A DNA stretch of 64,000 bases from an uncultured Planctomycetia bacterium (GCA_964415355.1 CAYPYS010000001.1:215399-279398); one strand, 5' to 3'. Shown: positions 837 to 28,305, numbered from the stretch's first letter. Numbers and translations are program-made. Notes: generated from the letters alone by a model not told the origin.

Positions 837-873
837 TAACTTTACATTTCAACAACGTTAAAGTGTAAAGTTA
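837..873. repeat. PIE copy 1 (37-bp imperfect palindrome TAACTTTACATTTCAACAACGTTAAAGTGTAAAGTTA)
   Basis: Read directly. It lies between the ychF-like stop (871-873, TAA = rc of the element's terminal TTA) and the purH start (819). The arms TAACTTTACA and TGTAAAGTTA are complementary. Confidence 0.9.
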
Positions 874-1872
874 GATGTTGAACCTGATGTTTATTATGTC
901 TCCGTCTTTTACTATATATTCCTTTCCTTCTACTTTCAGCAAGCCTGCTTCGCGGGCCTTGGGAACAGAGCCGCATTTAATAAAATCTTCGAAATTGAGC
1001 ACCTCTGCCCTTATAAAACCTCGCCTCATATCAGAGTGTACTTTACCTGCTGCCTCTATTGCCGATAATCCAGCTTTTAAATACCAGCCACGCGTTTCCT
1101 TTTCTCCGGTCGTGAAAAAGGTGACAAGATTTAATTTCTTTAAAATCAATTGCGAAAGCCGTTCTCTAAAATTATAGCCAGCGCCTAGTTCTTTTAAAAA
1201 TTTCTCTCTTTCTCCCGGAGCCAGCTCAAGAAGTTCTGATTCTGTCTTTCCAAAAAACCGAATAGACCTGATGTCTTTTAAGCTAGCGTGTTCCTCCAGC
1301 GCCTTTATTTTGGTTTCAGCCTCTTTATCCTCGTCTGAAACATTGATTGCCAAAATCAAGGGTTTTAAACTCAAAAATACCAGGCCGGAAAGCAGCTTTA
1401 TATCTTCGTTGCCTAGCCCGGCCTTTGATAAAAACTTTCCGTCCGAAGCGATCGCCTGACATTTCTCCAATATCTCTAGTTCACGTTCTGAGTCAGATTT
1501 CTTCCCCTCTTTTTCTATCCTCTTGATCCTATTTTGTATAAGGTCAAGGTCTGATATTATGATATCCGTAAGGCAATTTTCGAATTCCTTTTTAGGGTCC
1601 TGGCTAAAAAAAGCGCCTATAACACATATAAAAAGATCCACATCGTGCAGGTCAGACAGATCCTTTTTGCTAAAAGTCGAAGTGGATCCAATATCCACAA
1701 AGGTAAATTCAGGATATGTTGCTTTTTTCGACGAAAAAACTTCACGAATCTTATCTATGCGCGGATCCAATGCCCTAAAAACGCCGATGTTACCCGAGGC
1801 GTCTTTATTTAATAAGATTTTAAATAAAGTAGTCTTTCCGCTCTGAGGAGAGCCGATTATTCCTATCTTCAT
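871..1872 (-). CDS. YchF/Obg-family GTP-binding protein (divergent P-loop GSPQSGKTT; TGS-like C-terminus)
   Basis: 333 aa. MKIGIIGSPQSGKTTLF Walker A motif. C-terminal ...TRGWYLKAGLSAIEAAGKVHSDMRRGFIRAEV... resembles the YchF TGS domain. Its ATG at 1870-1872 nearly overlaps the upstream pseudopilin stop TAG (1874-1876), which suggests translational coupling. Confidence 0.7.
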   Translation of the reverse strand: MKIGIIGSPQSGKTTLFKILLNKDASGNIGVFRALDPRIDKIREVFSSKKATYPEFTFVDIGSTSTFSKKDLSDLHDVDLFICVIGAFFSQDPKKEFENCLTDIIISDLDLIQNRIKRIEKEGKKSDSERELEILEKCQAIASDGKFLSKAGLGNEDIKLLSGLVFLSLKPLILAINVSDEDKEAETKIKALEEHASLKDIRSIRFFGKTESELLELAPGEREKFLKELGAGYNFRERLSQLILKKLNLVTFFTTGEKETRGWYLKAGLSAIEAAGKVHSDMRRGFIRAEVLNFEDFIKCGSVPKAREAGLLKVEGKEYIVKDGDIINIRFNI

Positions 1873-1873
1873 T

Positions 1874-2491
1874 CTACGCAGTCTTAAGGTGGGTTACAAC
1901 CTCAAACATCTCGCTTTCTTTGCCTGCTTTATCTTCTATTTTTATCTTTATTCTGACAGCCTTTGGCAAAATACTTTCGTCTATTCCTTGCTCTTCTTCG
2001 ATCTCCTCTTCTGCATCTTCTTCGATTTCAATCATATTCCACGCCTCGCTCCACGTTGAGCCATTATAATATGAAAATTCCAATAGAGCTATATTTTCCG
2101 CTAAGATGTCACTATTGTCCTGCGTTGAAAAGTCAAAGTCAGGATCGATGTCCTCGTTGCGCATTATAAATCTTCCCTCTTTATCTAGCCAATATTCTAT
2201 CTCGACAAGCTCAAACACCCCTCCGGCGGTCGAGACAAAAGAAACAAAACCCACCTCTTCTTTATTTCCGATAAATTTACTAAGTTTATTTTCACTCACA
2301 ACTGCCTGAGAGATCTCCGCGCTCATCTTGCCAACAGCAACCCTCGCATTATGATAACGCTCGCTTCGCTTTTCGCCTTTTTGCCACGATTTGGAAGAAC
2401 TTCTGAAAATCACAAAGGTAGAAGTAACGATAACAGCAAGGATAGCCATCGCGATCAAGATCTCAACAAGTGTAAAGCCTTTTTCTCTCAT
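1874..2491 (-). CDS. Type II secretion / type IV pilus pseudopilin with prepilin-type N-terminal methylation motif (GspJ/K-like minor pseudopilin)
   Basis: The real start is probably ATG at 2489-2491 (MREKGFTLVEILIAMAILAVIV). The track start at 2521 (MLKCKVKVWS) lies inside a PIE copy. The class III signal shape is KG^FTLVE followed by a hydrophobic helix. A GGAG Shine-Dalgarno sits between the PIE and the ATG. Confidence 0.7.
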   Translation of the reverse strand: MREKGFTLVEILIAMAILAVIVTSTFVIFRSSSKSWQKGEKRSERYHNARVAVGKMSAEISQAVVSENKLSKFIGNKEEVGFVSFVSTAGGVFELVEIEYWLDKEGRFIMRNEDIDPDFDFSTQDNSDILAENIALLEFSYYNGSTWSEAWNMIEIEEDAEEEIEEEQGIDESILPKAVRIKIKIEDKAGKESEMFEVVTHLKTA

Positions 2492-2502
2492 ACTCCAAAC
2501 CT

Positions 2503-2539
2503 TAACTTTACATTTTAACATTGTTGAAATGTAAACTTA
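2503..2539. repeat. PIE copy 2 (TAACTTTACATTTTAACATTGTTGAAATGTAAACTTA)
   Basis: Read directly. The stop of pseudopilin 2537..2917 (TAA, rc of TTA 2537-2539) lies in its right end. The next gene's start (2491) is 12 nt beyond its left end. Confidence 0.9.
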
Positions 2540-2917
2540 GCGAATGACATGCGTCACAAAATCCTTTGACCTTGTCCTGTTACGCTCGACCCAAGACACC
2601 GTCGCCGTGATCTTTCTGATATCGTCTGTAGATTCTACGCCTTCCAGCTCAGCTTCGTCAATAAATATCTCCCACTCAAAATCTCCCTCTGTCCCTGAAA
2701 GCTCTATCTTGGGTGGAAGCTCTGTTATTACATCAAATCCTGCCATCTTCACTTCTTCTAATTTATTCTGCCCCAAAAATGCAGCTTTTGTCATCATGCC
2801 TGCGCGGTATGAAGCACGGAGACCAACAGGAAATATCTGCAGAACGCCCACGAGCCCAATAGCCAGCACCCCTATAGCTATAATCAGTTCTAAAAGCGAA
2901 AATCCTCTTTTATGCAT
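2537..2917 (-). CDS. Pseudopilin (GspG/H-like) with prepilin-type N-terminal cleavage/methylation motif
   Basis: 126 aa. MHKRGFSLLELIIAIGVLAIGLVGVLQIF is a canonical G^FSLLE prepilin signal followed by a hydrophobic helix. Confidence 0.75.
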   Translation of the reverse strand: MHKRGFSLLELIIAIGVLAIGLVGVLQIFPVGLRASYRAGMMTKAAFLGQNKLEEVKMAGFDVITELPPKIELSGTEGDFEWEIFIDEAELEGVESTDDIRKITATVSWVERNRTRSKDFVTHVIR

Positions 2918-2928
2918 ATGTTTTTACT

Positions 2929-2980
2929 ACTTATACACACTGTAGGGGAGCCTTAAGGCTCCCCTACAGTGTGTATAAGT
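2929..2980. repeat. 52-bp perfect palindrome ACTTATACACACTGTAGGGGAGCC-TTAA-GGCTCCCCTACAGTGTGTATAAGT (family D)
   Basis: Read directly. It lies between the pseudopilin start (2917) and the gspF stop (2987-2989). It shares the core GTAGGGGAGnCTTAAGnCTCCCCTAC with 28213-28264. Confidence 0.85.
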
Positions 2981-2986
2981 ATCAAG

Positions 2987-5248: not shown

Positions 5249-5285
5249 TAACTTTACATTTTAACATTGTTGAAATGTAAAGTTA
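5249..5285. repeat. PIE copy 3 (TAACTTTACATTTTAACATTGTTGAAATGTAAAGTTA)
   Basis: Read directly. The RND gene stop (5283-5285) lies in its right end. The coiled-coil gene start (5223) is 25 nt beyond its left end. Confidence 0.9.
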
Positions 5286-8200
5286 GGCGGGATGGTTCCG
5301 GGATTTCACTTTTATTATACCATAAATCCTGTTTTGAACAAATAATATTAATTGCATTGGATTAAAGCTTCTTCTGAGATCATCGAAGATCAAATAAAGG
5401 CTGGGAATTAAAAATAATGTGAGGACGGTGGAAGAGATAAGCCCCCCTATGACAGTTATCGCCAAAGGAGACCATAGATTAGCTGACTCGCTCCTGTCAA
5501 ATGCCATTGGCAAAAGCCCCAGGATAGTCGTAGAGGTAGTCATTACTATAGGCCTGAAGCGGTCTTCTCCTGCCTCCAGCACTGACTTTAAAATAGTCCC
5601 TCGTTTCCTTTTTTCTCTCGTCTTAAGCCTTTCCATTCTAGGAAGATGGAAAAGCGGGCCCCTTTTCTTTCTCCCTCTTAAAAAATTAATCCTGTCCACC
5701 AGGACAATGGAATTATTCACGACGATACCGGCCAGCATAATCGCACCTATTATAACTCCGCGGCTGATGGGTTTTTTCGTGATCTCAAGCGCCAAAACCA
5801 CCCCGATCACTGCCAGCGGAACCGCGATCATTATAACAAAAGGCTGCACATATGACTCGAAGAGGGACGCCAGCACAAGGTATACCAAAAATATCGTTAT
5901 CCATAAAACACCTGTGGGAAAGGCCCATAATTCCTTCTCGCTCTCCTTCAATCTTTCATAATCTCCGCCTATCCTATAATAATAATCCCTTGGGAATGTC
6001 ATGTCGGATAGATTCGACTTTATCCTCTTCTCCGCATCCACAAGCGTGCCCTTTGTAACAAGAGCCGTAATGTGCACGACCCTCATCTTATTTTTTCTTA
6101 CTATCTCACTCGAGCCTATCTGAGGATTAAACTCTGCCACCTGCTCAAGTATCAGAGGATCTCTGTCTTTCGAAAAAAGTATTAATTTTCTTAGATCATC
6201 GAGGCGCTCCCTGTCTTCTTTTCTTAGACGCGAAATAGTCTCTATCTCTCTCGCTTCCGTATGATATAATGTCGCTCTCAAGCCCCTTATCTCAGTATGA
6301 AGCGTCGTCGCTATGTCTCTGGTCGTCAAACCGAGCATGGCTGCCCTTTCTTTGTCGACTACGACGCCCCATTCCGGCCTGCCGCTGATCCTGGACATCC
6401 TGATATCTTCAAAGCCCTGCATTGCGCCTAGCCGCGTCGCAATCGAGACTGAAAGCTCCCTCAATACGTCATAATCATACCCATAAAGATCTACTACCAT
6501 CTCTTTCAAACCCTTTTCCTCTATTTCAGAAAAATAGATAAAACCCCCTCTGTATTTTTCTTCGACTGAGTGGGCGACATTCCGGATATCCTCTATGATG
6601 ACCTTTGTAGAACGCTGCCTCTGCATAAGAGGCAGAAGTTTTATATATATCTTCCCTGACCACGGCTCCACGCGTGAGGTAAAAGTCTTTATTTCCGGGA
6701 GCTCATCCAGCAACACCTCTATCTCCTTCACCATCTGGTCAGTCACATCGAGCTTTGCGCCAGGCTCCAGCTCGACAAAAATAGTAAATCTTCCCTCCTC
6801 TGTACCTATCATAAATTCCCTGTCCAAGAAAAATCCGCGTAACAAGACCAGCGCGAACAAGAAGAATGCTATCCCTGTAGCTATATATCTAAACCTCAGC
6901 CCGTAACCAAGAAATCTCCGATAATAAATCTTCAATCTCGTGAGCGTGTATTTTTTAAACATTAGTTTTTCGGATTCTTTCAGTCGAGGCATTATCTTCA
7001 TGCGGTCCGACAGCATGGGCACGAGCGTCAATGCTACGAACAGCGAGCTTAGGAGCGAATATGTCACTGTCAATGACAGCCCGCTCCACAGCATTCGCGT
7101 GGCCTTGTTTACAAAGACAAAGGGCAGGAATACGATTATAGTTGTAACAGTAGATGCGAATATCGCGAGGCCCACCTCGGATGTCCCGCCAACAACTGCG
7201 CTGGTGTATTTAGCCTTCCAGTCTTTTTTAGAATAATCGATAGCGCTTTTTTTCTTTTGAATATTATCGAGCACGACTATAGAATTGTCGACTAGCATGC
7301 CTATACCGAGCGCAAGGCCGCTGAGTGTCATAACGTTTATAGTTATCTTGTAAAAATACATCAGCGCAAACGTGAGCATGACTGATATGGGTATAGAAAC
7401 GGCTATGATCGAAGTCACATAGGGATCTCTCAAGAAGAGAAACAGTATCACAATGGCCAGGATCGCGCCGTACAGAAGAGACGTCCTAACAGCGACTATC
7501 GCCTCTTTTATCGCCTCAGATTTATTCAAAGTCGACTTTATAAATATATCCTTGTCCAGCGTCCTTTTTAAGCGGTTAAGCTCTTTCTGTATGCTCGATA
7601 TGACCTGGATTGTATTAGCGGTCGACTCTTTTTGAATATATATAGAGACGACGGGCTCTATGTCTGTCCTCGCGTAACTCGTGGGTTCCAAAAAAGAATC
7701 CCTCACCTTTGCGATTTCTTTAAGCCTGACTATGGAGCCATGAGCAGTGGTGGCGATGCCCAGATTTTTTATATCCTCGACAGACTGGAATTCTCCTATT
7801 ATCCTTACCAGAAATTTATTCTTGCCGTGCTTAATATCTCCTGCGAGCAAATTCAGATTGTTTACGCCAAGAAGATTGACAACCTGCTCAATAGGGACAT
7901 TGTACTGATGCAGTTTGTTCTTATCTATCTCGACGAGAATCTTTCGCTCCCTGCCCCCGTATATATCCACATTCGCAACGCCTTCCACGCGCAGCACTCG
8001 TTCTTTCACCTGTTCGTCTACGACTTTTCGCAACATCTCCGGCGAATAATTCTTTCCGGTGACTGCCAGGACCAGAATAGGCATGTCGGATTCTTTATAC
8101 TGTGCTATTATCGGTTTCTCTATCTCCTGCGGGAGTTTTTCTCTTATCTTTGAAAATTTTTCTCTAACTTCGAGCGCGGCAAAATCCATATTAGTGCCTG

Positions 8201-8492
8201 GCTCAAATTCAAGCCAGATCCTGGACTCTCCTGATTTTGAAGTGGAATAGATATTTTCCAGATGACTTACAGAGCTGACCGCCTCCTCAATGGGCTTAGT
8301 TACCATGACCTCTACTTCCTGCGGAGGCATGCCGCCTCTTATCCCGACGATAATACTTATGTCGCCGTAGGCTATGTTCGGCTTTAGATCAACTGGAAGG
8401 TTTAATAGAGACACGAATCCCACCAGCAATATGCCAATAAAAAGCATAGCTATGGTAACCGGCCTCCTGACTGAAAAACCTGATAGGCTCAT
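5283..8492 (-). CDS. Efflux RND transporter permease subunit (AcrB/MdtC/CzcA superfamily), second of a tandem pair
   Basis: 1069 aa. It starts MSLSGFSVRRPVTIAMLFIGILLVGFVSLLNLPVDLKPNI. It shows the 12-TM RND architecture with two large periplasmic loops, and internal motifs such as ...VLDNIVVVENI-like VVLDNIQKKK and AVPLAVIGVVLALEITKKPIS. Confidence 0.85.
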   Translation of the reverse strand: MSLSGFSVRRPVTIAMLFIGILLVGFVSLLNLPVDLKPNIAYGDISIIVGIRGGMPPQEVEVMVTKPIEEAVSSVSHLENIYSTSKSGESRIWLEFEPGTNMDFAALEVREKFSKIREKLPQEIEKPIIAQYKESDMPILVLAVTGKNYSPEMLRKVVDEQVKERVLRVEGVANVDIYGGRERKILVEIDKNKLHQYNVPIEQVVNLLGVNNLNLLAGDIKHGKNKFLVRIIGEFQSVEDIKNLGIATTAHGSIVRLKEIAKVRDSFLEPTSYARTDIEPVVSIYIQKESTANTIQVISSIQKELNRLKRTLDKDIFIKSTLNKSEAIKEAIVAVRTSLLYGAILAIVILFLFLRDPYVTSIIAVSIPISVMLTFALMYFYKITINVMTLSGLALGIGMLVDNSIVVLDNIQKKKSAIDYSKKDWKAKYTSAVVGGTSEVGLAIFASTVTTIIVFLPFVFVNKATRMLWSGLSLTVTYSLLSSLFVALTLVPMLSDRMKIMPRLKESEKLMFKKYTLTRLKIYYRRFLGYGLRFRYIATGIAFFLFALVLLRGFFLDREFMIGTEEGRFTIFVELEPGAKLDVTDQMVKEIEVLLDELPEIKTFTSRVEPWSGKIYIKLLPLMQRQRSTKVIIEDIRNVAHSVEEKYRGGFIYFSEIEEKGLKEMVVDLYGYDYDVLRELSVSIATRLGAMQGFEDIRMSRISGRPEWGVVVDKERAAMLGLTTRDIATTLHTEIRGLRATLYHTEAREIETISRLRKEDRERLDDLRKLILFSKDRDPLILEQVAEFNPQIGSSEIVRKNKMRVVHITALVTKGTLVDAEKRIKSNLSDMTFPRDYYYRIGGDYERLKESEKELWAFPTGVLWITIFLVYLVLASLFESYVQPFVIMIAVPLAVIGVVLALEITKKPISRGVIIGAIMLAGIVVNNSIVLVDRINFLRGRKKRGPLFHLPRMERLKTREKRKRGTILKSVLEAGEDRFRPIVMTTSTTILGLLPMAFDRSESANLWSPLAITVIGGLISSTVLTLFLIPSLYLIFDDLRRSFNPMQLILFVQNRIYGIIKVKSRNHPA

Positions 8493-8504: not shown

Positions 8505-8550
8505 TCATTCCCGCGAAGCTTGTCCCCGTGAAAACGGGGAGCGGGAATCC
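8505..8550. repeat. Nested hairpin GTCATTCCCGCGAAGCTTG-TCCCCGTGAAAACGGGGA-GCGGGAATCC (family B) in the 5' leader of RND gene 5283..8492
   Basis: Read directly. The outer stem is ATTCCCGC/GCGGGAAT. The inner stem is TCCCCG/CGGGGA with a TGAAAA loop. Confidence 0.8.
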
Positions 8551-8560
8551 ATATCTCGCG

Positions 8561-8597
8561 TAAGTATACATTTTAACGTTGTTGAAATGTATACTTA
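8561..8597. repeat. PIE copy 4a, GTATAC-stem variant (TAAGTATACATTTTAACGTTGTTGAAATGTATACTTA), first of a tandem pair
   Basis: Read directly. Both arms carry GTATAC in place of CTTTAC/GTAAAG, a compensatory double change. Confidence 0.9.
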
Positions 8598-8599
8598 CG

Positions 8600-8636
8600 T
8601 AACTTTACATTTTAACAATGTTAAAGTGTAAAGTTA
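8600..8636. repeat. PIE copy 4b (TAACTTTACATTTTAACAATGTTAAAGTGTAAAGTTA), second of a tandem pair
   Basis: Read directly. The stop of RND gene 8634..12437 (TAA) lies in its right end. Confidence 0.9.
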
Positions 8637-11600
8637 TTTTAATGCGTACCACCTGCCTGGGCCGAGAGGGCCGTGGGCTTCGAGCATACCGCGATCCACA
8701 AGCTCCTTCAGGTCCCTGGCTGCAGTAGGCACAGATATATTGAAACGCTCAGCGTATTCTTTGCGCGTGATTTTCTTTACTTCTTTTAAAAGCTCTAAAA
8801 GCTCTTCTTGTCTCTTTTTGAGAAGCGGCAGTTCTTCTGGCGCTTGAGGAGTGGGCTCAGGTTCTGGCTCGGGAGGCGCGGGTTCTGGCGGAGCAGGTTC
8901 TGACAGAGCAGGTTCAGGTGGTGCAGGTGGCGGCGGTGGAGGCAATTCTATTTTTGGCTCTTTTGGCGGCTTTGGCGTCTCTGGTTCCTTTGGCAACTCT
9001 TTCTTTTCTTGCTCTTGCGCTCTTATCTGAGGTTTGTATTCTTCTGCCTCTTTCAGTGATTCCGGCTCCTTTGGCTCTTCTTTTGGTTTCTCTTTCTTCT
9101 TAATACTAAAAGGTTTTACTTTGACCTTGAACTCCCTCGCCTCATCCGCCGATAATTTAATATCCCGATCCCTTTTAACTACTGGCTTTGCAATTTTTTT
9201 TGCTGCAGTCCTTGGCGGCTCAGCCTTTTTAACCGGCATAAGTTTAAAAACCGGCTTTGGCCCAAAAATACCGGCCACGACCAAATATATGCAAGGTATA
9301 ACAAAAAGTGTCAATATCGTTGAAACCAAAAGTCCGCCCATGACCGTTATCGCCATTGGACTCTGTATCTCCGCCCCTTCTGCAATGCCTGCTGCCAGCG
9401 GCAAAAGCCCCAGCACCGTGGTCATTGTCGTCATGAGAATCGGCCTGAGTCGCATCTTGCCTGACTCTATAACCGCTTCCACGAGCTCGACGCCTTTAGC
9501 GCGCAGCCTGTTTATTGAATCAATCAAAATAATACCGTTATTGACAACGATACCTCCAAGGATTATCACGCCGAGAATCACAACGACGCTGACAGGGGTA
9601 CCTGTAATAAATAACGCGAACAACGCTCCGATCGCAGAAAGCGGCAGCGTAAACATAATAATAAACGGCTGCCACAATGACTCGAATTGCGAAGCCATTA
9701 TCATGTAGACCAAGAGCATCGAGAGAAGCAGCGCAAACCTCAGCGACTTAAAAGATTCGCTCATCTGCTGACTTTCCCCCGAGAGATCAATGGTAAAAAG
9801 CTTCTCTGAGTCTCCCATCTTGTGCGACACCACGATCTTTTCCCGCTCAATATCCTCTATCATGGCCTCTATATCCATGATCACTTTATCCAGCGCCCTG
9901 TCAGCGATGTTGGCAGTCAGAAGAATAACCCTCTGTTGATCCAGCCTCTTTATCTCGCTAGGCCCTACGCCTTGACTGATATAGGCGACCTCTGACAGCG
10001 GCACCTCGATCCCGAGCGGAGAATGCACAAGCACGTTTCTGATTTGCGAGAGGCGCGACCGGCTTTCCTTCCTCAGTCTGACCCTCACATCTATCTCGTC
10101 TCCTTCTTCCTTAAACTTCGTCGCGACCACTCCTTTTATAGCAGTGTGCGCGGCCTGAGCTATGGTTCCCGTCGACAGATTGTAAAGCGATGCCTTGTCC
10201 TTAAGCACATTGACCTTTGTCTCTGGCGAAGGACTGATGAGACTCGTGCGGATACCGTATATACCTTTAACGCTAGCGAGTTTTGCTTTGACATACCTGG
10301 AAAGTTCTTCTATCTTATCAAGGTTTTTTCCTTTTATTTCAATGACAATAGGCGCGCTGCCCTGCAGGGCTGTCTTAAAAATACTCTCCTGTAGAATATA
10401 TTCTACCTGCGCTCCCTGCAGATCCAGTCTGTCTAATTCGCGTTTCAATTTTTCTATTGTCTTAGATGTCGGAGGCTGGCCTTTTCCTTTCTCCAGCGTC
10501 ACTATTATCTGAGATTGGTTGGACCCCAATGTTTCAACGCCTTGAGAATAGTCTTTTCTCGCGCTCGAGCCAATATTAACAGCCACGCCTTCAACGCCCC
10601 CTGTTCCAAAAAGTACTTTTTCTATCTTTGCCACAGCACTGTCCGTGGCCTCCAGCTTTGTGCCGCTAGGCATGTTGACTTTCATGATAAATTCGCGCTG
10701 GTCTATCTTTGGCATAAATTCCTTGTCCAGCAAGGCAAAAAGCCACACGCTCACGGCAAAAATTATAAAAATAAGGATCAGAAAAGCCACTCTGAATCTT
10801 AAAATCGTAGGTATGAGTCTTGAATAAACAGGCTTGAGGCCGAATGTAAATTCGCTCTTTTCTTCTCTGGATGCAGCGTTCGAATTCGAAATAGATCTCT
10901 GGGCGCGAAGACCGCCAACGCCGGTCAGCCGCGGGATCAAAGAAAGTGCCACAACTAAAGACGCGATCAGCGAAAACGTGACAGTAAAGGCGAGCTCTCT
11001 AAACAGCTGTCCCGCGACGCCAACGACAAATATCATCGGCAAAAATACTGCGACAGTAGTGAGCGTCGACGAGAAAATAGCTCCCGACATCTCGCTGGCC
11101 CCGGACTTACTCGCGTCTTTTATATTTACGTCTTTGCCTTTTTGGAGATGGGCGTAGATATTTTCAATTACAACTATTGCGTTGTCCACGAGCATGCCTA
11201 TACCGAGGGCCAGCCCGCCAAGAGAAAGCATGTTCAGCGAAATACCGTTGAAATACATGAGGCAGAACGCGACCATGATGGATATCGGCATTGAAAACGC
11301 GACTATTAAAGAAGCCCTGACCCTTCTTATAAAAATAAAAAGCACTAAAAATGCGAGAGCGCCTCCGATAATCGCAGCCTGCATGACCCCGCGTATTGAT
11401 TTTTTAATCAGGAGCGACTGGTCATATATTATGTCTATTTCCATTCCTTCCGGCAGATCTGCTTCTATTTCCTTCAGCCTCGCTCTTACTTTTTGGGCTA
11501 CAAGCAGGATGTTAACGCCCGCTTGTTTCTGCACAGCCACTGAAACGTTTTCCCTGCCATTGTAACGCGAGATGCTCGTGCGGTCTTTAAATGTGTCCTT

Positions 11601-12437
11601 GAGTTCCGCTATATCCTTAAGGTATATCAGTCTTTCTCTTTCCTTTATATCCTGAGCTTGTCGGGGAAGGATCGCGCGTAGCCCTGAGTCCTCGATCTCC
11701 CTGTCTACAACGGTCTCCTCTATATCCGAAAGCACCTGGAATTCCCCCATTGTCCTTATGAGGTATTCGTAAAAATGCTCCTCTATTGTGCCTGCTGGAT
11801 AATTTATATTAGACGACCGCAGAGCCTCAACGACCTTTGTGATGGAAATATTGGAAGCGCGCAGCCTTCCTTCGTCTATGGAGACAAGTATTTCGCGCTC
11901 CAGTCCGCCGGCAAGGTTACACGACGCCACGCCGTCGACCTTTTCAAGTTCGTCTTTGATAAATTTTCTCGAGAGCCGCAGGAGTTCTGAAGGAGACTTG
12001 TCGCCTCTGACGCTCAACGTAAGGACAGGCAGCTCAAACGGGTTGAATTTCATTACTATCGGGTCTGAAGAACCTATAGGAAGTCGTTCTTTTATGAGGT
12101 CTATTTTTTCGCTCACGCCGAGAGAGGCAAAATCCATGCTCGTGCCCCAGCCGAATTCACCGGTGACGATCGAAACGCCTTCCTTCGAGATAGAGCTTAT
12201 GCGTTTCAGATTACTGACTGTGCCGACCGCTTCTTCGATAATCTTCGTAATCAGTGTCTCGACTTCTTCTGGCGCTGCGTTTTCGTATGTGGTAACTACT
12301 GTGAGTTGCGGATAGGTGATAGAGGGGAAGAGTTCCCTAGGAAGGCGCGTAAGCGAGATCAACCCTAATATCAGCGCCCCCAAAAAGAACATGGAGATCG
12401 TAACAGGCCGATTTACTGAAAATTCTGGAAGTCGCAT
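8634..12437 (-). CDS. Efflux RND transporter permease subunit fused to a C-terminal ~230-aa extension (K/E-rich, then a Pro-rich low-complexity segment, then a winged-helix HTH)
   Basis: 1267 aa. The RND core runs to about aa 1035. Then comes a ...KEKPKEEPKEPESLKEAEEYKPQIRAQEQEKKELPKEPETPKPPKEPKIELPPPPPPAPPEPALSEPAPPEPAPPEPEPEPTPQAPEE linker. The C-terminus is ...ITRKEYAERFNISVPTAARDLKELVDRGMLEAHGPLGPGRWYALK, a DeoR/Fic-C-type wHTH. Confidence 0.8.
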   Translation of the reverse strand: MRLPEFSVNRPVTISMFFLGALILGLISLTRLPRELFPSITYPQLTVVTTYENAAPEEVETLITKIIEEAVGTVSNLKRISSISKEGVSIVTGEFGWGTSMDFASLGVSEKIDLIKERLPIGSSDPIVMKFNPFELPVLTLSVRGDKSPSELLRLSRKFIKDELEKVDGVASCNLAGGLEREILVSIDEGRLRASNISITKVVEALRSSNINYPAGTIEEHFYEYLIRTMGEFQVLSDIEETVVDREIEDSGLRAILPRQAQDIKERERLIYLKDIAELKDTFKDRTSISRYNGRENVSVAVQKQAGVNILLVAQKVRARLKEIEADLPEGMEIDIIYDQSLLIKKSIRGVMQAAIIGGALAFLVLFIFIRRVRASLIVAFSMPISIMVAFCLMYFNGISLNMLSLGGLALGIGMLVDNAIVVIENIYAHLQKGKDVNIKDASKSGASEMSGAIFSSTLTTVAVFLPMIFVVGVAGQLFRELAFTVTFSLIASLVVALSLIPRLTGVGGLRAQRSISNSNAASREEKSEFTFGLKPVYSRLIPTILRFRVAFLILIFIIFAVSVWLFALLDKEFMPKIDQREFIMKVNMPSGTKLEATDSAVAKIEKVLFGTGGVEGVAVNIGSSARKDYSQGVETLGSNQSQIIVTLEKGKGQPPTSKTIEKLKRELDRLDLQGAQVEYILQESIFKTALQGSAPIVIEIKGKNLDKIEELSRYVKAKLASVKGIYGIRTSLISPSPETKVNVLKDKASLYNLSTGTIAQAAHTAIKGVVATKFKEEGDEIDVRVRLRKESRSRLSQIRNVLVHSPLGIEVPLSEVAYISQGVGPSEIKRLDQQRVILLTANIADRALDKVIMDIEAMIEDIEREKIVVSHKMGDSEKLFTIDLSGESQQMSESFKSLRFALLLSMLLVYMIMASQFESLWQPFIIMFTLPLSAIGALFALFITGTPVSVVVILGVIILGGIVVNNGIILIDSINRLRAKGVELVEAVIESGKMRLRPILMTTMTTVLGLLPLAAGIAEGAEIQSPMAITVMGGLLVSTILTLFVIPCIYLVVAGIFGPKPVFKLMPVKKAEPPRTAAKKIAKPVVKRDRDIKLSADEAREFKVKVKPFSIKKKEKPKEEPKEPESLKEAEEYKPQIRAQEQEKKELPKEPETPKPPKEPKIELPPPPPPAPPEPALSEPAPPEPAPPEPEPEPTPQAPEELPLLKKRQEELLELLKEVKKITRKEYAERFNISVPTAARDLKELVDRGMLEAHGPLGPGRWYALK

Positions 12438-12459: not shown

Positions 12460-12496
12460 TAACTTTACATTTCAACAACGTTAAAATGTAAACTTA
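12460..12496. repeat. PIE copy 5 (TAACTTTACATTTCAACAACGTTAAAATGTAAACTTA)
   Basis: Read directly. It lies between the adaptor-gene stop (12504-12506, 8 nt away) and the RND start (12437). GGAG is 10 nt upstream of that ATG. Confidence 0.9.
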
Positions 12497-13698: not shown

Positions 13699-13721
13699 GT
13701 CATTCCCGCGCAAGCGGGAAC
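13699..13721. repeat. Hairpin GTCATTCCCGCG-CAAG-CGGGAAC (family B) in the 5' leader of the adaptor gene
   Basis: Read directly. Stem TCCCGC/GCGGGA with loop GCAA. Confidence 0.8.
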
Positions 13722-15593: not shown

Positions 15594-15897
15594 GTCTTAC
15601 CCTCGTGAAAAAGAAGTATACCATATGATTATATAATTGTCAATATTGGGGTTACAAAAATTTTGATACAGTTATGATACGGTTGGTTTGTTGGTGAGTC
15701 CCTTAGCATAATGAAGATATGCTAAGGCATGCTTAGGTCAGTCTTCGGAGGCCTCTTTATTTTTTGCGGACATGGTGCTTAACTTTACACTTTAACGTTG
15801 TTGAAATGTAAAGTTAAGCGAGCAAAAAATAAAAAGGAGAGAAAGCCGCTTCGCTGGGAGCGGCTGAGCGTCCTACGAAGACTGGCCTAAGCATGTC
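15594..15897. promoter_or_regulatory. Structured 304-bp intergenic region upstream of the efflux operon, with long inverted repeats bracketing a PIE copy
   Basis: Small hairpins: CTTAGCATAATGAAGATATGCTAAGG (~15700-15727), CTAAGGCATGCTTAGG (~15722-15738) and CCTAAGCATGTCTTAGG (~15885-15901). The left arm GGCATGCTTAGGTCAGTCTTCGGAGGCC (~15726-15753) is nearly the reverse complement of CGTCCTACGAAGACTGGCCTAAGCATG (~15869-15895). Inner inverted A/T runs are CTCTTTATTTTTTGCGG and GAGCAAAAAATAAAAAGGAG. A PIE sits at the centre. Confidence 0.6.
15780..15816. repeat. PIE copy 7 (TAACTTTACACTTTAACGTTGTTGAAATGTAAAGTTA; centre in flipped orientation)
   Basis: Read directly. The central 17-mer CTTTAACGTTGTTGAAA is the reverse complement of the copy-1 centre. 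Confidence 0.9.
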
Positions 15898-17168: not shown

Positions 17169-17205
17169 TAACTTTACACTTTAACGTTGTTGAAATGTAA
17201 AGTTA
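17169..17205. repeat. PIE copy 8 (TAACTTTACACTTTAACGTTGTTGAAATGTAAAGTTA)
   Basis: Read directly. The stop of ORF 17203.. (TAA) lies in its right end. Confidence 0.9.
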
Positions 17206-19974: not shown

Positions 19975-19982
19975 CACCCTTG

Positions 19983-20019
19983 TAAGTTTACATTTCAACA
20001 TTGTTGAAATGTAAACTTA
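19983..20019. repeat. PIE copy 9 (TAAGTTTACATTTCAACATTGTTGAAATGTAAACTTA; G..C paired stem variant)
   Basis: Read directly. It is followed by a GC-rich segment CGTCGCCCGCCGCGCTACCTGCGCAGCCGCGCC (20021-20053). Confidence 0.9.
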
Positions 20020-21282: not shown

Positions 21283-21319
21283 TAACTTTACACTTCAACA
21301 TTGTTGAAATGTAAAGTTA
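21283..21319. repeat. PIE copy 10 (TAACTTTACACTTCAACATTGTTGAAATGTAAAGTTA), flanked by CCCC/GGG extending the palindrome
   Basis: Read directly. A second hairpin GGTCTGGG...TGCCGACAGGCA...CCCAGACC follows immediately (21321-21356). Confidence 0.9.
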
Positions 21320-22170: not shown

Positions 22171-24486
22171 CTACTCCGTCCATAATTCTTGATACATAAA
22201 ATATGATTTTTTCAACTGCCTCAAGAACGGACTGTGACTGCCGTCCCCTTGTCCAGCTATGCCAAGCCACTCTTCATAATTCCATCCGTCTGGAAAAGGA
22301 CCTGCCCAGTTTTTGGTTGCATCGTGCAGTAAAGGCTCGTACGCCTTCCACCACTCATCCAACCATTCAAAGTGAATACCGCCTATAGAATTGCCTATGC
22401 CCCTATGCCCTCCTGAATTATACACTATATCCTTCCAGCTCTCCTTTAGATATTCAGCCTGTCTCTCTTCTGCAACCTCTTTTGACTTACCTGACATGTA
22501 ACTCGGGCACCCATATTCAGTAATAATAACGGGCTTATCGCACGCCTTTTTCGCGTTGTTCCAAAAACTCCTCCCGAAACCATAGCTTCCTCTATATGCA
22601 TTAGCCCCATAGATATCGATGTCCGGAGCAAGCTCGCTAAACTTGTCCAGAAACAATAAATCGCCGCTACAGATCGCAACAGGATGATCCCTGTCAATAG
22701 ACTTTATCATCCTTGCGACTTCATTTGCAAATTTATAATACGCCTCGGGTTTTTTCTTCGCATTGTTCGCGACACCATAATTATTTTCATTTCCAAGCAT
22801 CCAGAACAACACATACGGCTCGTCTTTAAATTGCTCTACCATTGATCTCACGCTCTCTATCATGTTCTTTTTATGTTCCGGGTTTTCATAATCCGTGCCT
22901 TCATACCAATCCGCGCCAGACCCGACAGTGTATGCGCCCAACAGATCTCCCATTATGACCATCATGCCATACCTGTTATACAAGTCTTCCAGGAGTTCCT
23001 TATCCGAAGCATGGTGATATAGCCGCATCGCATTACAGCCCATATCTGCCATCAATTGAAAATCCCCCACTGCTTCCTCGTCCGCGTCCTGCACATTATT
23101 AAAATTCTTATCCACCCAGCTGTCGTAAGGCCCGTCGCTCCTTCCGTTGCCATTGCTATCTGCCTGCATCCAATCCTCTAAAGTGCCTTCGTCCGGGCTC
23201 TGTCCGATTTTACCTGGAGAATAAGCAATGCCTTTTACGATAAATGGTTTTCCTTCCAGCCTTAAGTGCCAGTGCCCGTTATTGTATTGCACGAGATCCA
23301 CCCTGCCGTCGCCAAGCTGCCTCACGACCCTGCCTGTCCTGACCGGTCTATTCTTAAACAAAGCCTTCTTTATATTATCGAAAAAACCCAGCTTCACAAG
23401 GCGGCCGGGGTCTACAAAAAATATATCATTGGAAAGGTCATTGTCAAACCCATTTTCAACAAATATCTCTGCGTCGCGCAACTCCATCTTTAACTCCGGG
23501 TGTTTTTCCAATAAAAAGTCGATCTTGTCTATAGCTACCTGCGCAATATACCAGGGCGTATGAAAATATGTCCAGCCAACTGATTTCGGGAAGTGCACAG
23601 CTATTGCGTAATATGCCTTTATTGCGTGCTCTGTGAGACCTGAACGTTCAAGCGCCATAGCTGCGTAAAAAAGCCTGACTCCCATTGGCTCTGCTGCCTG
23701 CGTCCATTTGTAAAAATTGGACTCAAGATCATCAGTATTCACAAAATCCCAATGATTACCTTCTAACCTGCCTTCCTTGCTCAGCTCTCTATAGCGCGGG
23801 TCCCACACCACCCCGGATGTATTCGGATAAATACCTTCACCTGCGGCCAGCGCCAAGCCTTCCGGGTCCTTTGCCACATACCTATATTTATCAGTGCCTC
23901 TTCCTTTAAAATATCCATATTTATTGTAGTTAACGGGAAACTCTTTGCCTGCATCATAAAGCGTGATCTTTGTCGCAGGCCTGATTATTGCAGGCGGCTT
24001 TTCTGCTTCTTTCTCGTCGCCAGCCTCGGCCTCTGTCTCTATCTTCTCGAGACTCTCCTGGCTCTTTTCCTTTACACTCCAGAACCAGCCGCGCGGATCC
24101 CAGTTCTGCGCGTATCCATACTCTTCTATCGCTGCCACAAACGCCTCTTTCGCCTCCTCTGTCTTCCCCTGCGAGAGAAAGAGCTCGCCTTGAATAAAAT
24201 AACTCGTCCCCACTGCGTTGAGCACTGCGTATTTCTCTATAGCGCCTGTCATCGGCAAGCCAGTCAGGCTCGCCTGCTCTTCTCTTGCCTCACCCGCGTA
24301 GAGCTCGATACATCTACTCGTGTAGTGAAAGGTTTTTTCAAGATCCTTTGCGCCCCAGGCCTCCCACGCGCGCATAAGCAGCTCTTTTGCAGAAAGCGGT
24401 GCAGTCTCTACAACTTCTTCAGCAGCCTGCACTGGAACCGCCATCACCATCACCAAAAATATCACAACTAAATTTATTTTTCTCAT
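22171..24486 (-). CDS. Secreted glycoside hydrolase, clan GH-A catalytic domain with N-terminal TPR-like region
   Basis: The likely start is MRKINLVVIFLVMVMAVPVQA (ATG 24484-24486, abutting the PIE). The track start is TTG inside the PIE. It has GNENNYG and VIITEYGCPS motifs. The N-terminal ~330 aa is helical and TPR-like. Confidence 0.6.
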   Translation of the reverse strand: MRKINLVVIFLVMVMAVPVQAAEEVVETAPLSAKELLMRAWEAWGAKDLEKTFHYTSRCIELYAGEAREEQASLTGLPMTGAIEKYAVLNAVGTSYFIQGELFLSQGKTEEAKEAFVAAIEEYGYAQNWDPRGWFWSVKEKSQESLEKIETEAEAGDEKEAEKPPAIIRPATKITLYDAGKEFPVNYNKYGYFKGRGTDKYRYVAKDPEGLALAAGEGIYPNTSGVVWDPRYRELSKEGRLEGNHWDFVNTDDLESNFYKWTQAAEPMGVRLFYAAMALERSGLTEHAIKAYYAIAVHFPKSVGWTYFHTPWYIAQVAIDKIDFLLEKHPELKMELRDAEIFVENGFDNDLSNDIFFVDPGRLVKLGFFDNIKKALFKNRPVRTGRVVRQLGDGRVDLVQYNNGHWHLRLEGKPFIVKGIAYSPGKIGQSPDEGTLEDWMQADSNGNGRSDGPYDSWVDKNFNNVQDADEEAVGDFQLMADMGCNAMRLYHHASDKELLEDLYNRYGMMVIMGDLLGAYTVGSGADWYEGTDYENPEHKKNMIESVRSMVEQFKDEPYVLFWMLGNENNYGVANNAKKKPEAYYKFANEVARMIKSIDRDHPVAICSGDLLFLDKFSELAPDIDIYGANAYRGSYGFGRSFWNNAKKACDKPVIITEYGCPSYMSGKSKEVAEERQAEYLKESWKDIVYNSGGHRGIGNSIGGIHFEWLDEWWKAYEPLLHDATKNWAGPFPDGWNYEEWLGIAGQGDGSHSPFLRQLKKSYFMYQELWTE

Positions 24487-24522
24487 AACTTTACATTTCA
24501 ACAACGTTAAAGTGTAAACTTA
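24486..24522. repeat. PIE copy 11 (TAACTTTACATTTCAACAACGTTAAAGTGTAAACTTA)
   Basis: Read directly. It directly abuts the GH start codon. The ABC permease start (25375) is on the other side, so this is not a stop-overlapping copy. Confidence 0.9.
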
Positions 24523-25375: not shown

Positions 25376-25384
25376 AAAGTTTTT

Positions 25385-25408
25385 GTCATTCCCGCGAAAG
25401 CGGGAATC
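25385..25408. repeat. Hairpin GTCATTCCCGCG-AAA-GCGGGAATCC (family B; 8-bp stem, GAAA loop) in the 5' leader of the permease gene
   Basis: Read directly. Confidence 0.8.
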
Positions 25409-25409
25409 C

Positions 25410-25446
25410 TAACTTTACATTTCAACAACGTTAAAGTGTAAACTTA
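25410..25446. repeat. PIE copy 12 (TAACTTTACATTTCAACAACGTTAAAGTGTAAACTTA; identical to copy 11)
   Basis: Read directly. The stop of permease 25444..26331 lies in its right end. Confidence 0.9.
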
Positions 25447-26331
25447 GGCCTTGTTCATATGCTTCGATATACGGATCTGGATAAATGACACTGCCAAAAG
25501 TATCGCGCCGAAGATAATGCCCTGGCTGCACGCATATCCAAATCTCGACGAACCCACCATCGAAGACAAAATCCTGGTCACAGGGACCTCTGTATGGTAC
25601 CCTGGCCCTCCTCCTGTCATTGAAAGTATCAATACAAAAACCTGCATCGTGCCGAGCACCGTAAGGATCGACACCAGGACAAACACAGGCACCATAAGAG
25701 GCGCAGTAACCTTTTTAAATATCTGCCATGAGTTTGCTCCGTCCACGCGCGCGGCCTCGTACAGCTGCCTCGGTATAGTCTGAAGTCCTGCCAAAAATAT
25801 AATAAAACCCCAGCCAAATCCTTTCCAGCAATGGATCATTGCCACGCACGTCAGCGCGGTCTTTGGATCCGAAAGCCAGTCCCGCACCAAATGCGACAAT
25901 CCCATCGCATGCAGCCAATGATTCAAAAGTCCGAAATTCCCGTCGTAAATCCAGCGCCACACAAGCCCGACGACCACCGCAGAAAGAACAGGTGGCAGAT
26001 AAAATATCACTCTGTAAACATTCCCGCCTTTTATGTCTCTGTCGCACGCCCACGCCAGCGTCAGCGCCAAGGCGTTCTGAAAAGTAAGCGCGATCAGGGT
26101 AATATACCCTGCCTGGCCCATGGCCTGCCACCAGATTTTATCGTAAAAGAAAAGCTCTTTAAAATTCCTGAAGCCTATGAAATTTTTCGCAAAATCAAAA
26201 CCCATTATCCCGTCCCACTCACAAAGAGAAAGCATGAAGACCTTGTAGAAAGGATAAATATAAAATACTGAGAACATCAATACTGCCGGCAACACAAAAA
26301 AGTAATTTTCAACTGTAGATTTTATCCGCAT
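25444..26331 (-). CDS. Carbohydrate ABC transporter permease (CUT1 family, MalF/UgpA-like)
   Basis: 295 aa with an EAA loop ...LYEAARVDGANSWQIFKKVTAPLMVPV.... Confidence 0.8.
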   Translation of the reverse strand: MRIKSTVENYFFVLPAVLMFSVFYIYPFYKVFMLSLCEWDGIMGFDFAKNFIGFRNFKELFFYDKIWWQAMGQAGYITLIALTFQNALALTLAWACDRDIKGGNVYRVIFYLPPVLSAVVVGLVWRWIYDGNFGLLNHWLHAMGLSHLVRDWLSDPKTALTCVAMIHCWKGFGWGFIIFLAGLQTIPRQLYEAARVDGANSWQIFKKVTAPLMVPVFVLVSILTVLGTMQVFVLILSMTGGGPGYHTEVPVTRILSSMVGSSRFGYACSQGIIFGAILLAVSFIQIRISKHMNKA

Positions 26332-26344: not shown

Positions 26345-26381
26345 TAAGTTTACACTTTAACGTTGTTGAAATGTAAACTTA
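26345..26381. repeat. PIE copy 13 (TAAGTTTACACTTTAACGTTGTTGAAATGTAAACTTA)
   Basis: Read directly. A family-C element follows immediately. Confidence 0.9.
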
Positions 26382-27751: not shown

Positions 27752-27770
27752 ATTTTAAATCACGACTCGA

Positions 27771-28112
27771 TCAATTGGCTGCAAAAAGCCTTGACATGCC
27801 TTCGCCAAACTTAAGGCCAACGCCATCCTTCTCAACCCTTACAACCTCAGCCTCTCCTGTGAGTCGTGAAAAAGGAAAATCTCTTCTGTCGTCCTTAGGC
27901 ACTGATAAGTATATATTGAGCTTATCCTGGGGCTTGATATTCTTAATATCTATATTTATTACATATGCACCATGATAACTTAGGTTCAGAGTAAGCCCCT
28001 CTTGTGCCTCTCGCTTCTTATCGGCTGCGCCACGGTTAACGTTTACGGGAAGAGATAAATCTATCCTTTTAGACTGCCTCTTCTCCATAAAATCTCCAGC
28101 CCTCATCAACAC
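27771..28112 (-). CDS. PilZ domain protein (c-di-GMP binding)
   Basis: 113 aa. RQSKRIDLSLPVNV is an RxxxR-like motif. The ...TLNLSYHGAYV... beta-barrel and a downstream D.SxxG-like ...ISEGGV region follow. It is only 19 nt upstream of the SBP gene with no PIE between them. Confidence 0.6.
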   Translation of the reverse strand: MLMRAGDFMEKRQSKRIDLSLPVNVNRGAADKKREAQEGLTLNLSYHGAYVINIDIKNIKPQDKLNIYLSVPKDDRRDFPFSRLTGEAEVVRVEKDGVGLKFGEGMSRLFAAN

Positions 28113-28212
28113 CTCCTTTTTGAAAACGCTTTCTTGCTATGACTATACCACAACCCTTAAGATTTTAAAAGCTTTTTTTTATTTTTTTTCACCTTAACCT
28201 CACATTTTGTCG

Positions 28213-28264
28213 TTTCCCTCTCTTCGTAGGGGAGACTTAAGTCTCCCCTACGAAGAGAGGGAAA
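28213..28264. repeat. 52-bp perfect palindrome TTTCCCTCTCTTCGTAGGGGAGAC-TTAA-GTCTCCCCTACGAAGAGAGGGAAA (family D)
   Basis: Read directly. It is preceded by a T-run (TTTTTTTTATTTTTTTT at 28172-28190) and lies just 3' of the giant ORF. Confidence 0.85.
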
Positions 28265-28266
28265 GC

Positions 28267-28305
28267 TTAAGCATACACTTCAACATTGTTGAAGTGTATA
28301 CTTAA
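28267..28305. repeat. PIE copy 14, GCATAC/GTATAC variant (TTAAGCATACACTTCAACATTGTTGAAGTGTATACTTAA)
   Basis: Read directly. The giant-ORF stop TAA (28302-28304) lies in its right end. Confidence 0.9.

Follow-up and report, generated by a model that had tools for sequence, protein, structure and literature searches.

A Stop-Codon-Associated Palindrome, Probably of the REP/RAYT Kind, in an Uncultured Omnitrophota Bacterium

Introduction

Why should a palindrome of 37 bp stand at most gene junctions over 28 kb of a bacterial genome, including junctions between genes of the same operon? The question is raised by a 64-kb stretch of DNA (64,000 nucleotides; GCA_964415355.1 CAYPYS010000001.1:215399-279398), recorded under an uncultured Planctomycetia bacterium and called the window here, in which the palindrome recurs throughout positions 837–28305. 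A first-pass annotation, made from the sequence alone, had proposed either a systematic role of the palindrome at each cistron (RNA processing, mRNA-end stabilization, or a universal promoter or operator) or a very active mobile element that targets stop codons. The best relatives of the window proteins are annotated as Candidatus Omnitrophota, a phylum of ultra-small, uncultured, probably host-dependent bacteria. In the papers searched, repeats of a palindromic or intergenic kind are nowhere mentioned for Omnitrophota.

The palindrome is probably a repetitive extragenic palindromic (REP)-type repeat of an uncultured Omnitrophota bacterium, associated with a transposase of the Y1/HUH tyrosine class that resembles the REP-associated tyrosine transposases (RAYTs). 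It would represent an undescribed, lineage-specific form of the REP/RAYT kind, which is unusually dense and lies flush on stop codons, and it would extend REP/RAYT biology to this phylum. RAYTs were first defined as transposase genes bracketed by inverted copies of the abundant palindrome of their genome (PMC2817692), and they occur as single copies that pass on by vertical inheritance (PMC5581495). Stop codons are often furnished by REP termini, and most REPs are located downstream of open reading frames (ORFs), some of them within ORFs (PMC3733652). REPs are also documented to cluster between cistrons and at distances of up to 15 nt from stop codons (PMC3733652, PMC12306157).

Structure and Copy Number of the Palindrome

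Copies were sought with the first-pass consensus, allowing up to three mismatches and using 100 dinucleotide-preserving shuffles as the control, and with a position-weight matrix (PWM) scan of the window, which also catches variants. The consensus has 12 matches in 837–28305 and one at 34731, and none in the shuffles (0/100). The PWM scan adds three copies (8561, 13724, 28268) in which both arms have changed from TTTACA/TGTAAA to TATACA/TGTATA, copy 28268 having one G·T wobble (GCATACA/TGTATAC on the + strand), as well as a degenerate copy at 48885. The total is 15 copies in 837–28305 and 17 in the window. This confirms the first-pass count of 15, which included one tandem pair (8561–8597 and 8600–8636, 2 nt apart).

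The core of the palindrome consists of a 17-bp stem and a 3-nt center. Flanking bases commonly lengthen the stem to 19–22 bp, giving the form C-Y-TAAS...STTA-R-G in the window. In the related metagenome-assembled genome (MAG) CAYULJ01, the palindrome takes a 41-bp form (CTTAAG...CTTAAG), with T at position 0 in 77 of 90 copies and A at position 38 in 82 of 90. The length of 37 bp given initially therefore describes the core, and the element is often 2–4 nt longer. Its ends read TAAC or TAAG (CTTAAG in the MAG), so that TAA is read at both ends.

Conservation of base pairing was assessed with 53 distinct variants from several genomes and 500 shuffles. Compensatory double changes are found in 6 of the 17 stem pairs (1/37 UA/CG; 4/34 GC/CG; 6/32 UA/AU; 7/31 UA/CG/GC; 11/27; 14/24). 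Cells of the alignment are paired at 95.1% versus 89.4% in the shuffles (0/500), and the covariation score of the stem is 0.198 versus 0.100, although self-copying subfamilies inflate such counts. The pairs near the apex (11/27, 14/24) are frequently mismatched. As RNA hairpins, the copies have folding energies of −11 to −29 kcal/mol (z-scores, −4 to −12). Unlike a terminator, with its GC-rich stem plus U-tract, the palindrome has an AT-rich stem and is not followed by a T-run. Canonical terminator-like sites are not enriched in the window (22 versus 17 ± 4.7), none of them lies on a palindrome, and comparison of the palindrome with Rfam gives no matching family.

Isolated half-sites are absent from the 64 kb in the PWM scan. 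This bears on the idea that the palindrome is an inverted pair of DNA uptake sequences, like the pairs (DUS/USS) downstream of genes in Neisseria and Haemophilus. The palindrome resembles such pairs in its frequency (~1 per 2–3 kb), in its position after genes, and in the proximity of type IV pilus/type II secretion-like genes. Uptake sequences are mostly singletons, however, many of them inside genes, and the sequence of the palindrome differs between close relatives. Because half-sites are absent, we regard this explanation as excluded for practical purposes.

Position at Gene Junctions

The range 837–28305 contains 20 genes and 19 junctions, and every gene is on the − strand. The genes include ychF, two pseudopilin genes, gspF, a hypothetical gene, and genes for two resistance-nodulation-division (RND) permeases, a membrane fusion protein (MFP), an outer-membrane efflux protein (OEP) and a ROK regulator, followed by a porin-like gene, glycosidase-like genes, and genes for two ABC permeases, a substrate-binding protein (SBP) and a PilZ protein. 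Next in the coordinates comes a giant ORF of 11,871 aa (28302..63917, − strand). The 15 copies occupy 14 of the 19 junctions (74%), or ~1 copy per 1.9 kb over 28 kb. The first-pass annotation was correct in the number of occupied junctions and in placing copies inside operons (e.g., MFP–RND1, the pseudopilins, the ABC permeases). It had counted 17 junctions in all, where a recount gives 19, and three empty ones, all tight, where five are empty: PilZ/SBP, GH-TPR (glycoside hydrolase–tetratricopeptide repeat)/hyp250, hyp383/gspF, gspF/pilin, and pilin/ychF. Two of these five are not tight, namely gspF/pilin, whose 69-nt spacer holds a different palindrome of 54 bp, and GH-TPR/hyp250, whose 50-nt spacer has no full copy. 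In the latter spacer (22121–22170), the motif GTTAACATTG...TTAACATTT resembles the apex of the palindrome and may be a decayed remnant.

In 8 of the 15 copies, the upstream gene has as its stop codon the first TAA of the palindrome, as read on the coding strand (the ORFs end at 871, 2537, 5283, 8634, 13758, 17203, 25444, and 28302). Copy 837..873, of the TTTACA type, stands at the ychF–purH junction, and its TAA at 871–873 (− strand) ends ychF. Copy 2503..2539, between the two pseudopilin genes, ends the pseudopilin gene 2537..2917, and copy 5249..5285 ends the gene of RND permease 2 (5283..8492). In the tandem pair, unit 1 (8600..8636) ends the gene of RND permease 1 (8634..12437), and unit 2 (8561..8597) is a TATACA variant. 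A further TATACA variant (13724..13760) supplies the stop of the OEP gene (13758..15593). The same holds for copy 17169..17205 and the porin-like gene (17203..20001), for copy 25410..25446, which lies between the two ABC permease genes and ends 25444..26331, and for the wobble-bearing TATACA-type copy 28268..28304, which ends the 11,871-aa ORF.

In the remaining copies, the stop codon is located 4–81 nt upstream of the palindrome. Copy 12460..12496 (MFP–RND1 junction) lies 7 nt past the MFP stop, copy 19983..20019 (GH72-like–porin-like junction) 41 nt past the stop, and copy 24486..24522 only 4 nt past the stop of permease 2, its last base being the A of the ATG of the next gene. Copy 21283..21319 (hyp250–GH72-like junction) forms a 45-nt perfect hairpin together with its flanks. 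Copy 26345..26381 is at the SBP–permease junction, and copy 15780..15816 is in the ROK–OEP spacer. The ribosome-binding site and start of the next gene usually follow 6–45 nt after the palindrome.

Gene calling is affected at some of these sites. At 24484–24522, the GH/TPR gene, whose ATG shares its A with the end of the palindrome, has no space for a separate ribosome-binding site, and the ORF lister called a TTG start inside copy 24486 and, likewise, an ATG start (2519–2521) inside copy 2503–2539.

In a census of 129 non-redundant copies, 91 are at co-directional junctions, 11 at convergent and 1 at divergent junctions, and 2 are within ORFs. About 36% of the 129 supply a stop codon, and most others lie 3–50 nt past one. 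REPs are described as having just such a distribution (PMC3733652, PMC12306157). Divergent junctions are occupied in 0 of 9 cases, versus 22–43% for the other junction types.

The RAYT-like Transposase and Its Flanking Palindromes

A tblastn search with E. coli RayT against the Omnitrophota DNA of this analysis gave no match, and the RAYT-like gene was found with an Omnitrophota Y1_Tnp protein (from locus L186) as the query. A locus of MAG CAYULJ01 (L040, 1560..2351) encodes a RAYT-like protein of 263 aa that passes the Pfam threshold for Y1_Tnp (35.6 bits; cut-off 23). Its sole match in NCBIfam is REP_Tyr_transpos (64 bits, E = 1e-17; curated cut-off 80). When it is aligned with E. coli RayT, the HUH histidines (His76, His78) and the catalytic Tyr135 do not vary. 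The protein also has a C-terminal helix-turn-helix (HTH).

The gene is flanked by two copies of the palindrome (1501–1541 and 2336–2376), one of them ending 19 nt before the ATG. The ORF enters the second copy and terminates at its internal TAA. The last 4–5 residues of the RAYT (K-F/Y-T-L/F) are encoded by the downstream palindrome, as found in L040 (2336–2351), in L187 (1115–1130), and in protein P0241, and the Phe/Tyr among them switches with the TTTACA or TATACA type of the palindrome.

RAYT homologs are numerous in Omnitrophota (1,220 matches), and many are on contigs of ~950 bp, as is expected if repeats flank the gene. The gene follows thrC in five lineages, and the wider context PilZ-hom-thrC-RAYT-HTH_3-Tricorn_N is shared by two lineages. 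The protein is ~50% identical across lineages that keep this position, which suggests vertical inheritance of the gene. The flanking palindromes vary with the lineage. In L187, a TATACA-type palindrome is present on both sides of the gene. In L188 and L189, contigs of the sample series that also yielded the metagenomic strains of the window organism, the palindrome upstream of the RAYT gene is exactly window copy 8561. In L190, the flanks are AACAACTT[T/G]ACA...TGT[C/A]AAGTTGTT, present twice on each side of the gene; on the downstream side, the outer copy is the exact inverse of the upstream pair, and 21 kb contain no copies other than these four. In L192, a more asymmetric form is present in three copies upstream and one inverted copy downstream. 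The arrangement is that of a REPtron. No RAYT paralogs are present in the MAG loci, and an all-against-all search of these loci for multi-copy transposase ORFs found none. A RAYT gene is probable in the genome of the window organism itself, P0241/L188 being the best candidate.

These observations also bear on the nature of the mobilizing enzyme. A minimal MITE (miniature inverted-repeat transposable element) would consist of two terminal inverted repeats moved by a DDE transposase (IS630/Tc1-like or IS5-like) that duplicates a TA or TTAA target, and, of the targets that can be tolerated, TAA stop codons would in that case be the most frequent. Such an element would account for the termini, which contain TA/TTAA (CTTAAG...CTTAAG in the MAG), and for the composite and nested forms described below; moreover, the ychF site of the window (atcTAAC...GTTAaagag) fits an insertion into the TA/TTAA of the corresponding site of a relative (gttTAAgg in L058). 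A target-site duplication is not demonstrable because the flanks are indistinguishable from an extension of the palindrome. On the other hand, neither a transposase with matching termini nor a multi-copy transposase ORF was found in 341 kb of MAG loci, and a specific, lineage-covarying link to a Y1 transposase gene is unexpected for a DDE-driven MITE, which we consider unlikely. The earlier suggestion of an active stop-codon-targeting mobile element comes close to the evidence, but its mobilizer is likely a RAYT-type Y1 transposase and not a classical MITE transposase.

Distribution and Turnover

Metagenomic copies of the window DNA from JGI and ENA are 99.94–100% identical to it, and two more copies of the palindrome are found in the 7 kb beyond the start of the window. 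In a scan of one genome per species, the matches listed place the palindrome on nearly all contigs sampled from MAG CAYULJ01, and two other genomes have single copies. The MAG loci contain at least 109 copies in 326 kb. A metagenome scan with a 29-mer of one subfamily yielded 27 further contigs, all of a third organism (assembly JACKQG01), with 31 copies in 50 kb. From the scans of the window organism, MAG CAYULJ01 and JACKQG01, the palindrome is genome-wide in at least three organisms. In the MAG, it occupies ~20–40% of co-directional junctions, even though the MAG loci were selected for holding a copy, and the first 28 kb of the window are thus among the densest stretches. A scan of viral contigs for a loosely defined arm gave only chance matches, and viral loci (L062–L181) were excluded from the analysis.

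The distance between MAG CAYULJ01 and the window organism was at first taken to be very large from the 45% identity of their gspF products. That estimate has been withdrawn, as the gspF contexts differ and the genes are probably paralogs, and as the RAYTs are ~78% identical.

Orthologous DNA of the JACKQG01 organism and MAG CAYULJ01 is 81–87% identical, which permits a comparison of individual junctions. One compensated pair is diagnostic of the genome (C4:G34 in 29 of 31 JACKQG01 copies versus G4:C34 in 79 of 90 MAG copies). Of five orthologous junctions, three are occupied in both genomes, and each copy there bears the 4/34 pair of its own genome. At one junction the JACKQG01 organism alone has a copy, and at one its standard copy is matched in the MAG by a composite of 56 bp. 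These five junctions indicate that copies either evolve in concert or are re-inserted repeatedly, and that they are gained and lost over short times, as is reported for REP populations. This turnover, read from sequence comparison, lends indirect support to mobility of the palindrome.

Syntenic Relatives Lacking the Palindrome

Seven Omnitrophota relatives (L058–L061 and L184–L186) preserve the gene order of the window (porin-ROK-OEP-MFP-RND-RND-hyp-(gspF-pilins)-ychF-purH-folC-mnmE-folE), and their RND permease 2 is 54–75% identical to that of the window at the amino-acid level. Motif scans find the 37-bp family in none of the seven, and the PWM maximum is below 0 in L058–L061. In these relatives, the stop and start codons of adjacent genes overlap by 4 nt (ATGA) at MFP/RND1 in three, at OEP/MFP in two, and at RND1/RND2 in one, and other junctions have spacers of 9–20 nt. 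The palindrome at 12460..12496 therefore occupies a junction (MFP/RND1) that is an ATGA overlap in three relatives.

Alignable C-termini are unchanged in the window (YchF, ..RFN[V/I]*; porin, ..F*; OEP, ..KP*). As YchF, the porin-like protein and OEP end at the same residue as their orthologs, the palindrome starts exactly at the native stop codon. Sister families that retain the STTTACA arms but differ at the apex are carried by two relatives: L061 has four copies of TAAGTTTACA-CTTCRAGCAATACTCGTTT-TGTAAACTTA, and L184 has two of STTTACAYWTYTGTCATTGACTAAARTGTAAAS. Some of these stand at junctions that are also occupied in the window organism (ychF/purH, purH/folC, mnmE/folE). Judged from these alignments, the palindrome has been gained in the lineage of the window and is not part of the ancestral operon design.

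The relatives are decisive for two further explanations. The first is a host cis-regulatory element of RNA or DNA that is under selection at each junction and recognized by a conserved host factor, acting as a terminator or attenuator without a U-tract, a processing site for RNase III or another enzyme, a 3′ stabilizer, or a translational uncoupler. The strict position at gene 3′ ends, where the hairpin meets the stop codon and is directly followed by the ribosome-binding site of the next gene, would suit such a function, as would the stability of the RNA hairpins and the very high local occupancy. In addition, both translation and the decay of mRNA are influenced in E. coli by REPs that lie no more than 15 nt from a stop codon (PMC12306157, citing its reference 17). 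The MAG copies show a weak orientation bias, with T57:A33 at the center and, on the sense strand, 37 U·G versus 16 C·A at pair 14/24. However, the overall excess of G·U over A·C does not reach significance (MAG, p = 0.13; window, p = 0.84), and the window copies are oriented at random with respect to transcription (8:8). The seven relatives run the same operons, through tight or overlapping junctions, with the family absent; close relatives differ in its presence or absence; copies inside an ORF decay; and the hairpin has neither a U-tract nor an Rfam match. A cis-regulatory element is hence improbable as the primary explanation, though a secondary regulatory role is conceivable. The systematic per-cistron role first envisaged is not supported either, given the seven relatives, the random orientation, the lack of a U-tract and of enriched terminators, and the ~20–40% occupancy in the MAG.

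The second explanation is that the palindromes are integron attC-like recombination sites delimiting gene cassettes. Their outer bases resemble core sites (YYYTAAC/GTTARRR), a stop codon lies inside the site, and the genes face one way. The putative cassettes are, however, housekeeping and operon genes (ychF, gspF, MFP/RND/RND/OEP) whose order is conserved in the seven relatives, and the palindrome is distributed genome-wide. The inner AAC box is direct and not inverted relative to the outer box, and extrahelical bases are absent. Known attC sites are longer than 37–41 bp, and the palindrome falls below their sizes. Conserved synteny excludes this explanation, leaving it a negligible probability.

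Comparison with Known Repeats

Among known systems, the REP/bacterial interspersed mosaic element (BIME) repeats and RAYTs of E. coli, Pseudomonas and Stenotrophomonas are the closest to the palindrome. Both are short, high-copy palindromes located past gene 3′ ends and between cistrons, with compensatory stem changes, subfamilies, mosaic clusters (here 8508–8636), a syntenic Y1/HUH gene flanked by inverted copies, and termini that can supply stop codons. They differ in several respects. The stem here is AT-rich, almost perfect and 17–21 bp long, with an apex of 1–3 nt, whereas REP stems are GC-rich and imperfect. The copies are mostly singletons, not doublets of the REPIN type, and the local occupancy of 74% is unusually high. 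The RAYT-like protein differs from known RAYTs in its C-terminal HTH, in its score below the NCBIfam cut-off, and in its host phylum, Omnitrophota. GTAG-tagged REPs (Di Nocera et al. 2013, PMC3733652) are alike in that the repeat end doubles as an ORF stop and in that some copies are inside ORFs; they give TAG stops, whereas the symmetric palindrome has TAA at both ends. The statement that its regularity lies far beyond known REP/BIME elements was therefore too strong, since stop-supplying and stop-clustered REPs are documented, but the local density is indeed high.

Three other groups of repeats share single traits with the palindrome. Correia elements of Neisseria (CREE) are small inverted repeats at TA-containing targets that are co-transcribed as hairpins and affect mRNA processing; they measure 100–155 bp and have distinct terminal inverted repeats, an integration host factor (IHF) site and promoter elements. 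To our knowledge, they are not associated with a RAYT. Rickettsia palindromic elements (RPE; 100–150 bp) are frequently inside genes and readable in frame. Two relics in the giant ORF that are read through in frame recall this property, but copies within ORFs are rare here (2/129) and decayed. IS200/IS605 elements and their PATE derivatives use a Y1 HUH transposase that acts on single-stranded hairpins and inserts at a short target without duplication. In contrast to those elements, the palindrome unit holds no transposase, and the enzyme gene is syntenic, like a domesticated RAYT.

Several findings weigh against the assignment to the REP/RAYT kind. Described REP superfamilies are marked by a GTAG or CGTC tag (PMC3733652), which the ends of the palindrome (TAAS; CTTAAG in relatives) lack. 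The REP_Tyr_transpos score of the RAYT-like protein (64 bits) is under the curated cut-off, and a phmmer search with this protein against the PDB gave no significant match. The candidate P0241/L188 could not be linked to the window contig. The adjacency of thrC, RAYT and palindrome in the MAG, L187 and L188 may reflect one inherited event, so that independent support for the RAYT–palindrome association comes from L190 and L192. No clean case of a filled versus an empty site with identical flanks was found, and six metagenomic strains of the window organism (99.94–100% identical) show neither insertion polymorphism nor indels. Finally, an occupancy of 74% over 28 kb may need a strong target preference or a benefit to the host. 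Because of the missing tag and the RAYT unlinked to the window genome, the palindrome is placed outside the described REP superfamilies.

Proposed Mechanism and Consequences

If the palindrome is a RAYT-associated repeat, the following sequence of events can be proposed. In its single-stranded state, as DNA or RNA, the 37–41 bp, near-perfect palindrome would fold into a hairpin. The RAYT, if it acts like E. coli RayT and IS200/IS605, would recognize and cleave the single-stranded hairpin and seed new copies. The survivors in a compact genome would be the copies in the few neutral nucleotides past gene 3′ ends. With TAA at both ends, a copy can lie on a stop codon and regenerate it whichever way it is oriented; this placement might arise from a TAA- or TTAA-containing target or from selection only. 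Continued turnover would keep the copies within a genome alike by concerted evolution.

When transcribed, the palindrome would place a hairpin of −11 to −29 kcal/mol at or just after the stop codon, which, as with E. coli REPs, could shield upstream mRNA from 3′ exonucleases, stall terminating ribosomes, or uncouple neighboring cistrons. Such effects would be side-effects and not the reason for the existence of the palindrome. Catalysis by the RAYT-like protein, its target preference and the effects on mRNA are all proposed from comparison with better-known systems. In a more far-reaching version, the RAYT/REP system would have been co-opted as a genome-wide cistron-boundary device, the stop-codon hairpin setting mRNA 3′ ends or uncoupling translation for most genes, and the copies in the giant ORF would be former junctions of a giant gene that has grown by fusion across REP-occupied spacers. 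We think this version unlikely.

The palindrome illustrates clearly how a repeat with stop codons at both ends may come to colonize a compact genome, even operons that were formerly translationally coupled. The thrC–RAYT locus with its lineage-specific flanking palindromes is a tractable system for the study of RAYT–REP co-evolution, and the junctions are suited to asking whether a stop-codon hairpin alters expression within operons. There are also practical consequences: such palindromes break short-read assemblies, as seen in the RAYT homologs on contigs of ~950 bp, and they mislead gene callers, which place starts inside the element; one ORF may be fused across it.

Other Repeats and Neighboring Genes

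A second family of repeats is formed by the hairpin ggaTTCCCGC-loop-GCGGGAAtgaca, which each time lies directly 3′ of a 37-bp copy. At 8508..8547, directly 3′ of the tandem pair, it reads TTCCCGC...GCGGGAA(TGACA) and includes a nested hairpin, giving a BIME-like mosaic. The hairpins at 13703..13720 (TTCCCGC-loop-GCGGGAA) and 25389..25406 adjoin copies 13724 and 25410, respectively. The composite 25384–25446 is 92% identical to positions 3296–3358 of MAG locus L009.

A third family consists of GTAG-type, REP-like palindromes. A perfect 54-bp palindrome (2928..2981) with the core GTAGGGGAG-CTTAAG-CTCCCCTAC occupies the gspF–pilin junction, and a perfect 52-bp palindrome (28213..28264) with the same GTAG-type core adjoins copy 28268. 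Six similar copies are present in the MAG loci, and none were found in the syntenic relatives.

The 56-bp composite of the MAG is present in six copies (L004, L010, L016, L026, L029, L049), in which one inner arm of the palindrome is replaced by TACCACTTCGTGGCACAGGCTTYCYC. In other MAG loci, unrelated repeats are nested between two palindrome half-sites. L186 contains a more distant Y1_Tnp gene flanked (640–720, 1430–1460) by another hairpin, CCACTTCGTAGGTGG, which contains GTAG; the similar motif CCACTTCGTGG is the insert of the 56-bp composite in the MAG.

The two copies inside the giant ORF share the phase xxT-AAS, and each has one substitution that removes the in-phase stop. The decayed copy 34731..34767 has TGA changed to TGG, and the degenerate copy 48885..48921 has TAA changed to CAA. 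Copy 34731 is followed by a decayed second-family hairpin of the TTCCCGC type and then by a hydrophobic segment, MTVVVLLLIAYLI. A homolog search with the segment of the giant ORF spanning 34731 gave no matches. These copies may be in-frame insertions, for which REPs and RPEs provide known precedents, or former gene junctions fused into the giant gene.

RND permease 1 (8634–12437, − strand) has a C-terminal extension of ~200 aa that ends in a DeoR-type HTH (residues 1209–1253). This fusion appears to be real, as the same Pfam match is found in the orthologs of L058, L059, and L061.

In the ROK–OEP spacer, copy 15780..15816 is the center of a composite repeat of ~120 bp (15751–15872) that is 88.5% identical to positions 131–251 of L213, a contig of another organism, and a longer inverted repeat surrounds the copy. 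It lies upstream of a conserved promoter of the efflux operon: upstream of OEP (15600–15700, − strand), a direct repeat, CCGTATCAnnAC(C/T)GTATCA, is followed by a TTGACA-17-TATACT promoter, and both are conserved in L058–L061, the relatives compared at that junction. The direct repeat probably serves the efflux operon as its operator, and the promoter as its promoter, under the control of the neighboring ROK regulator.

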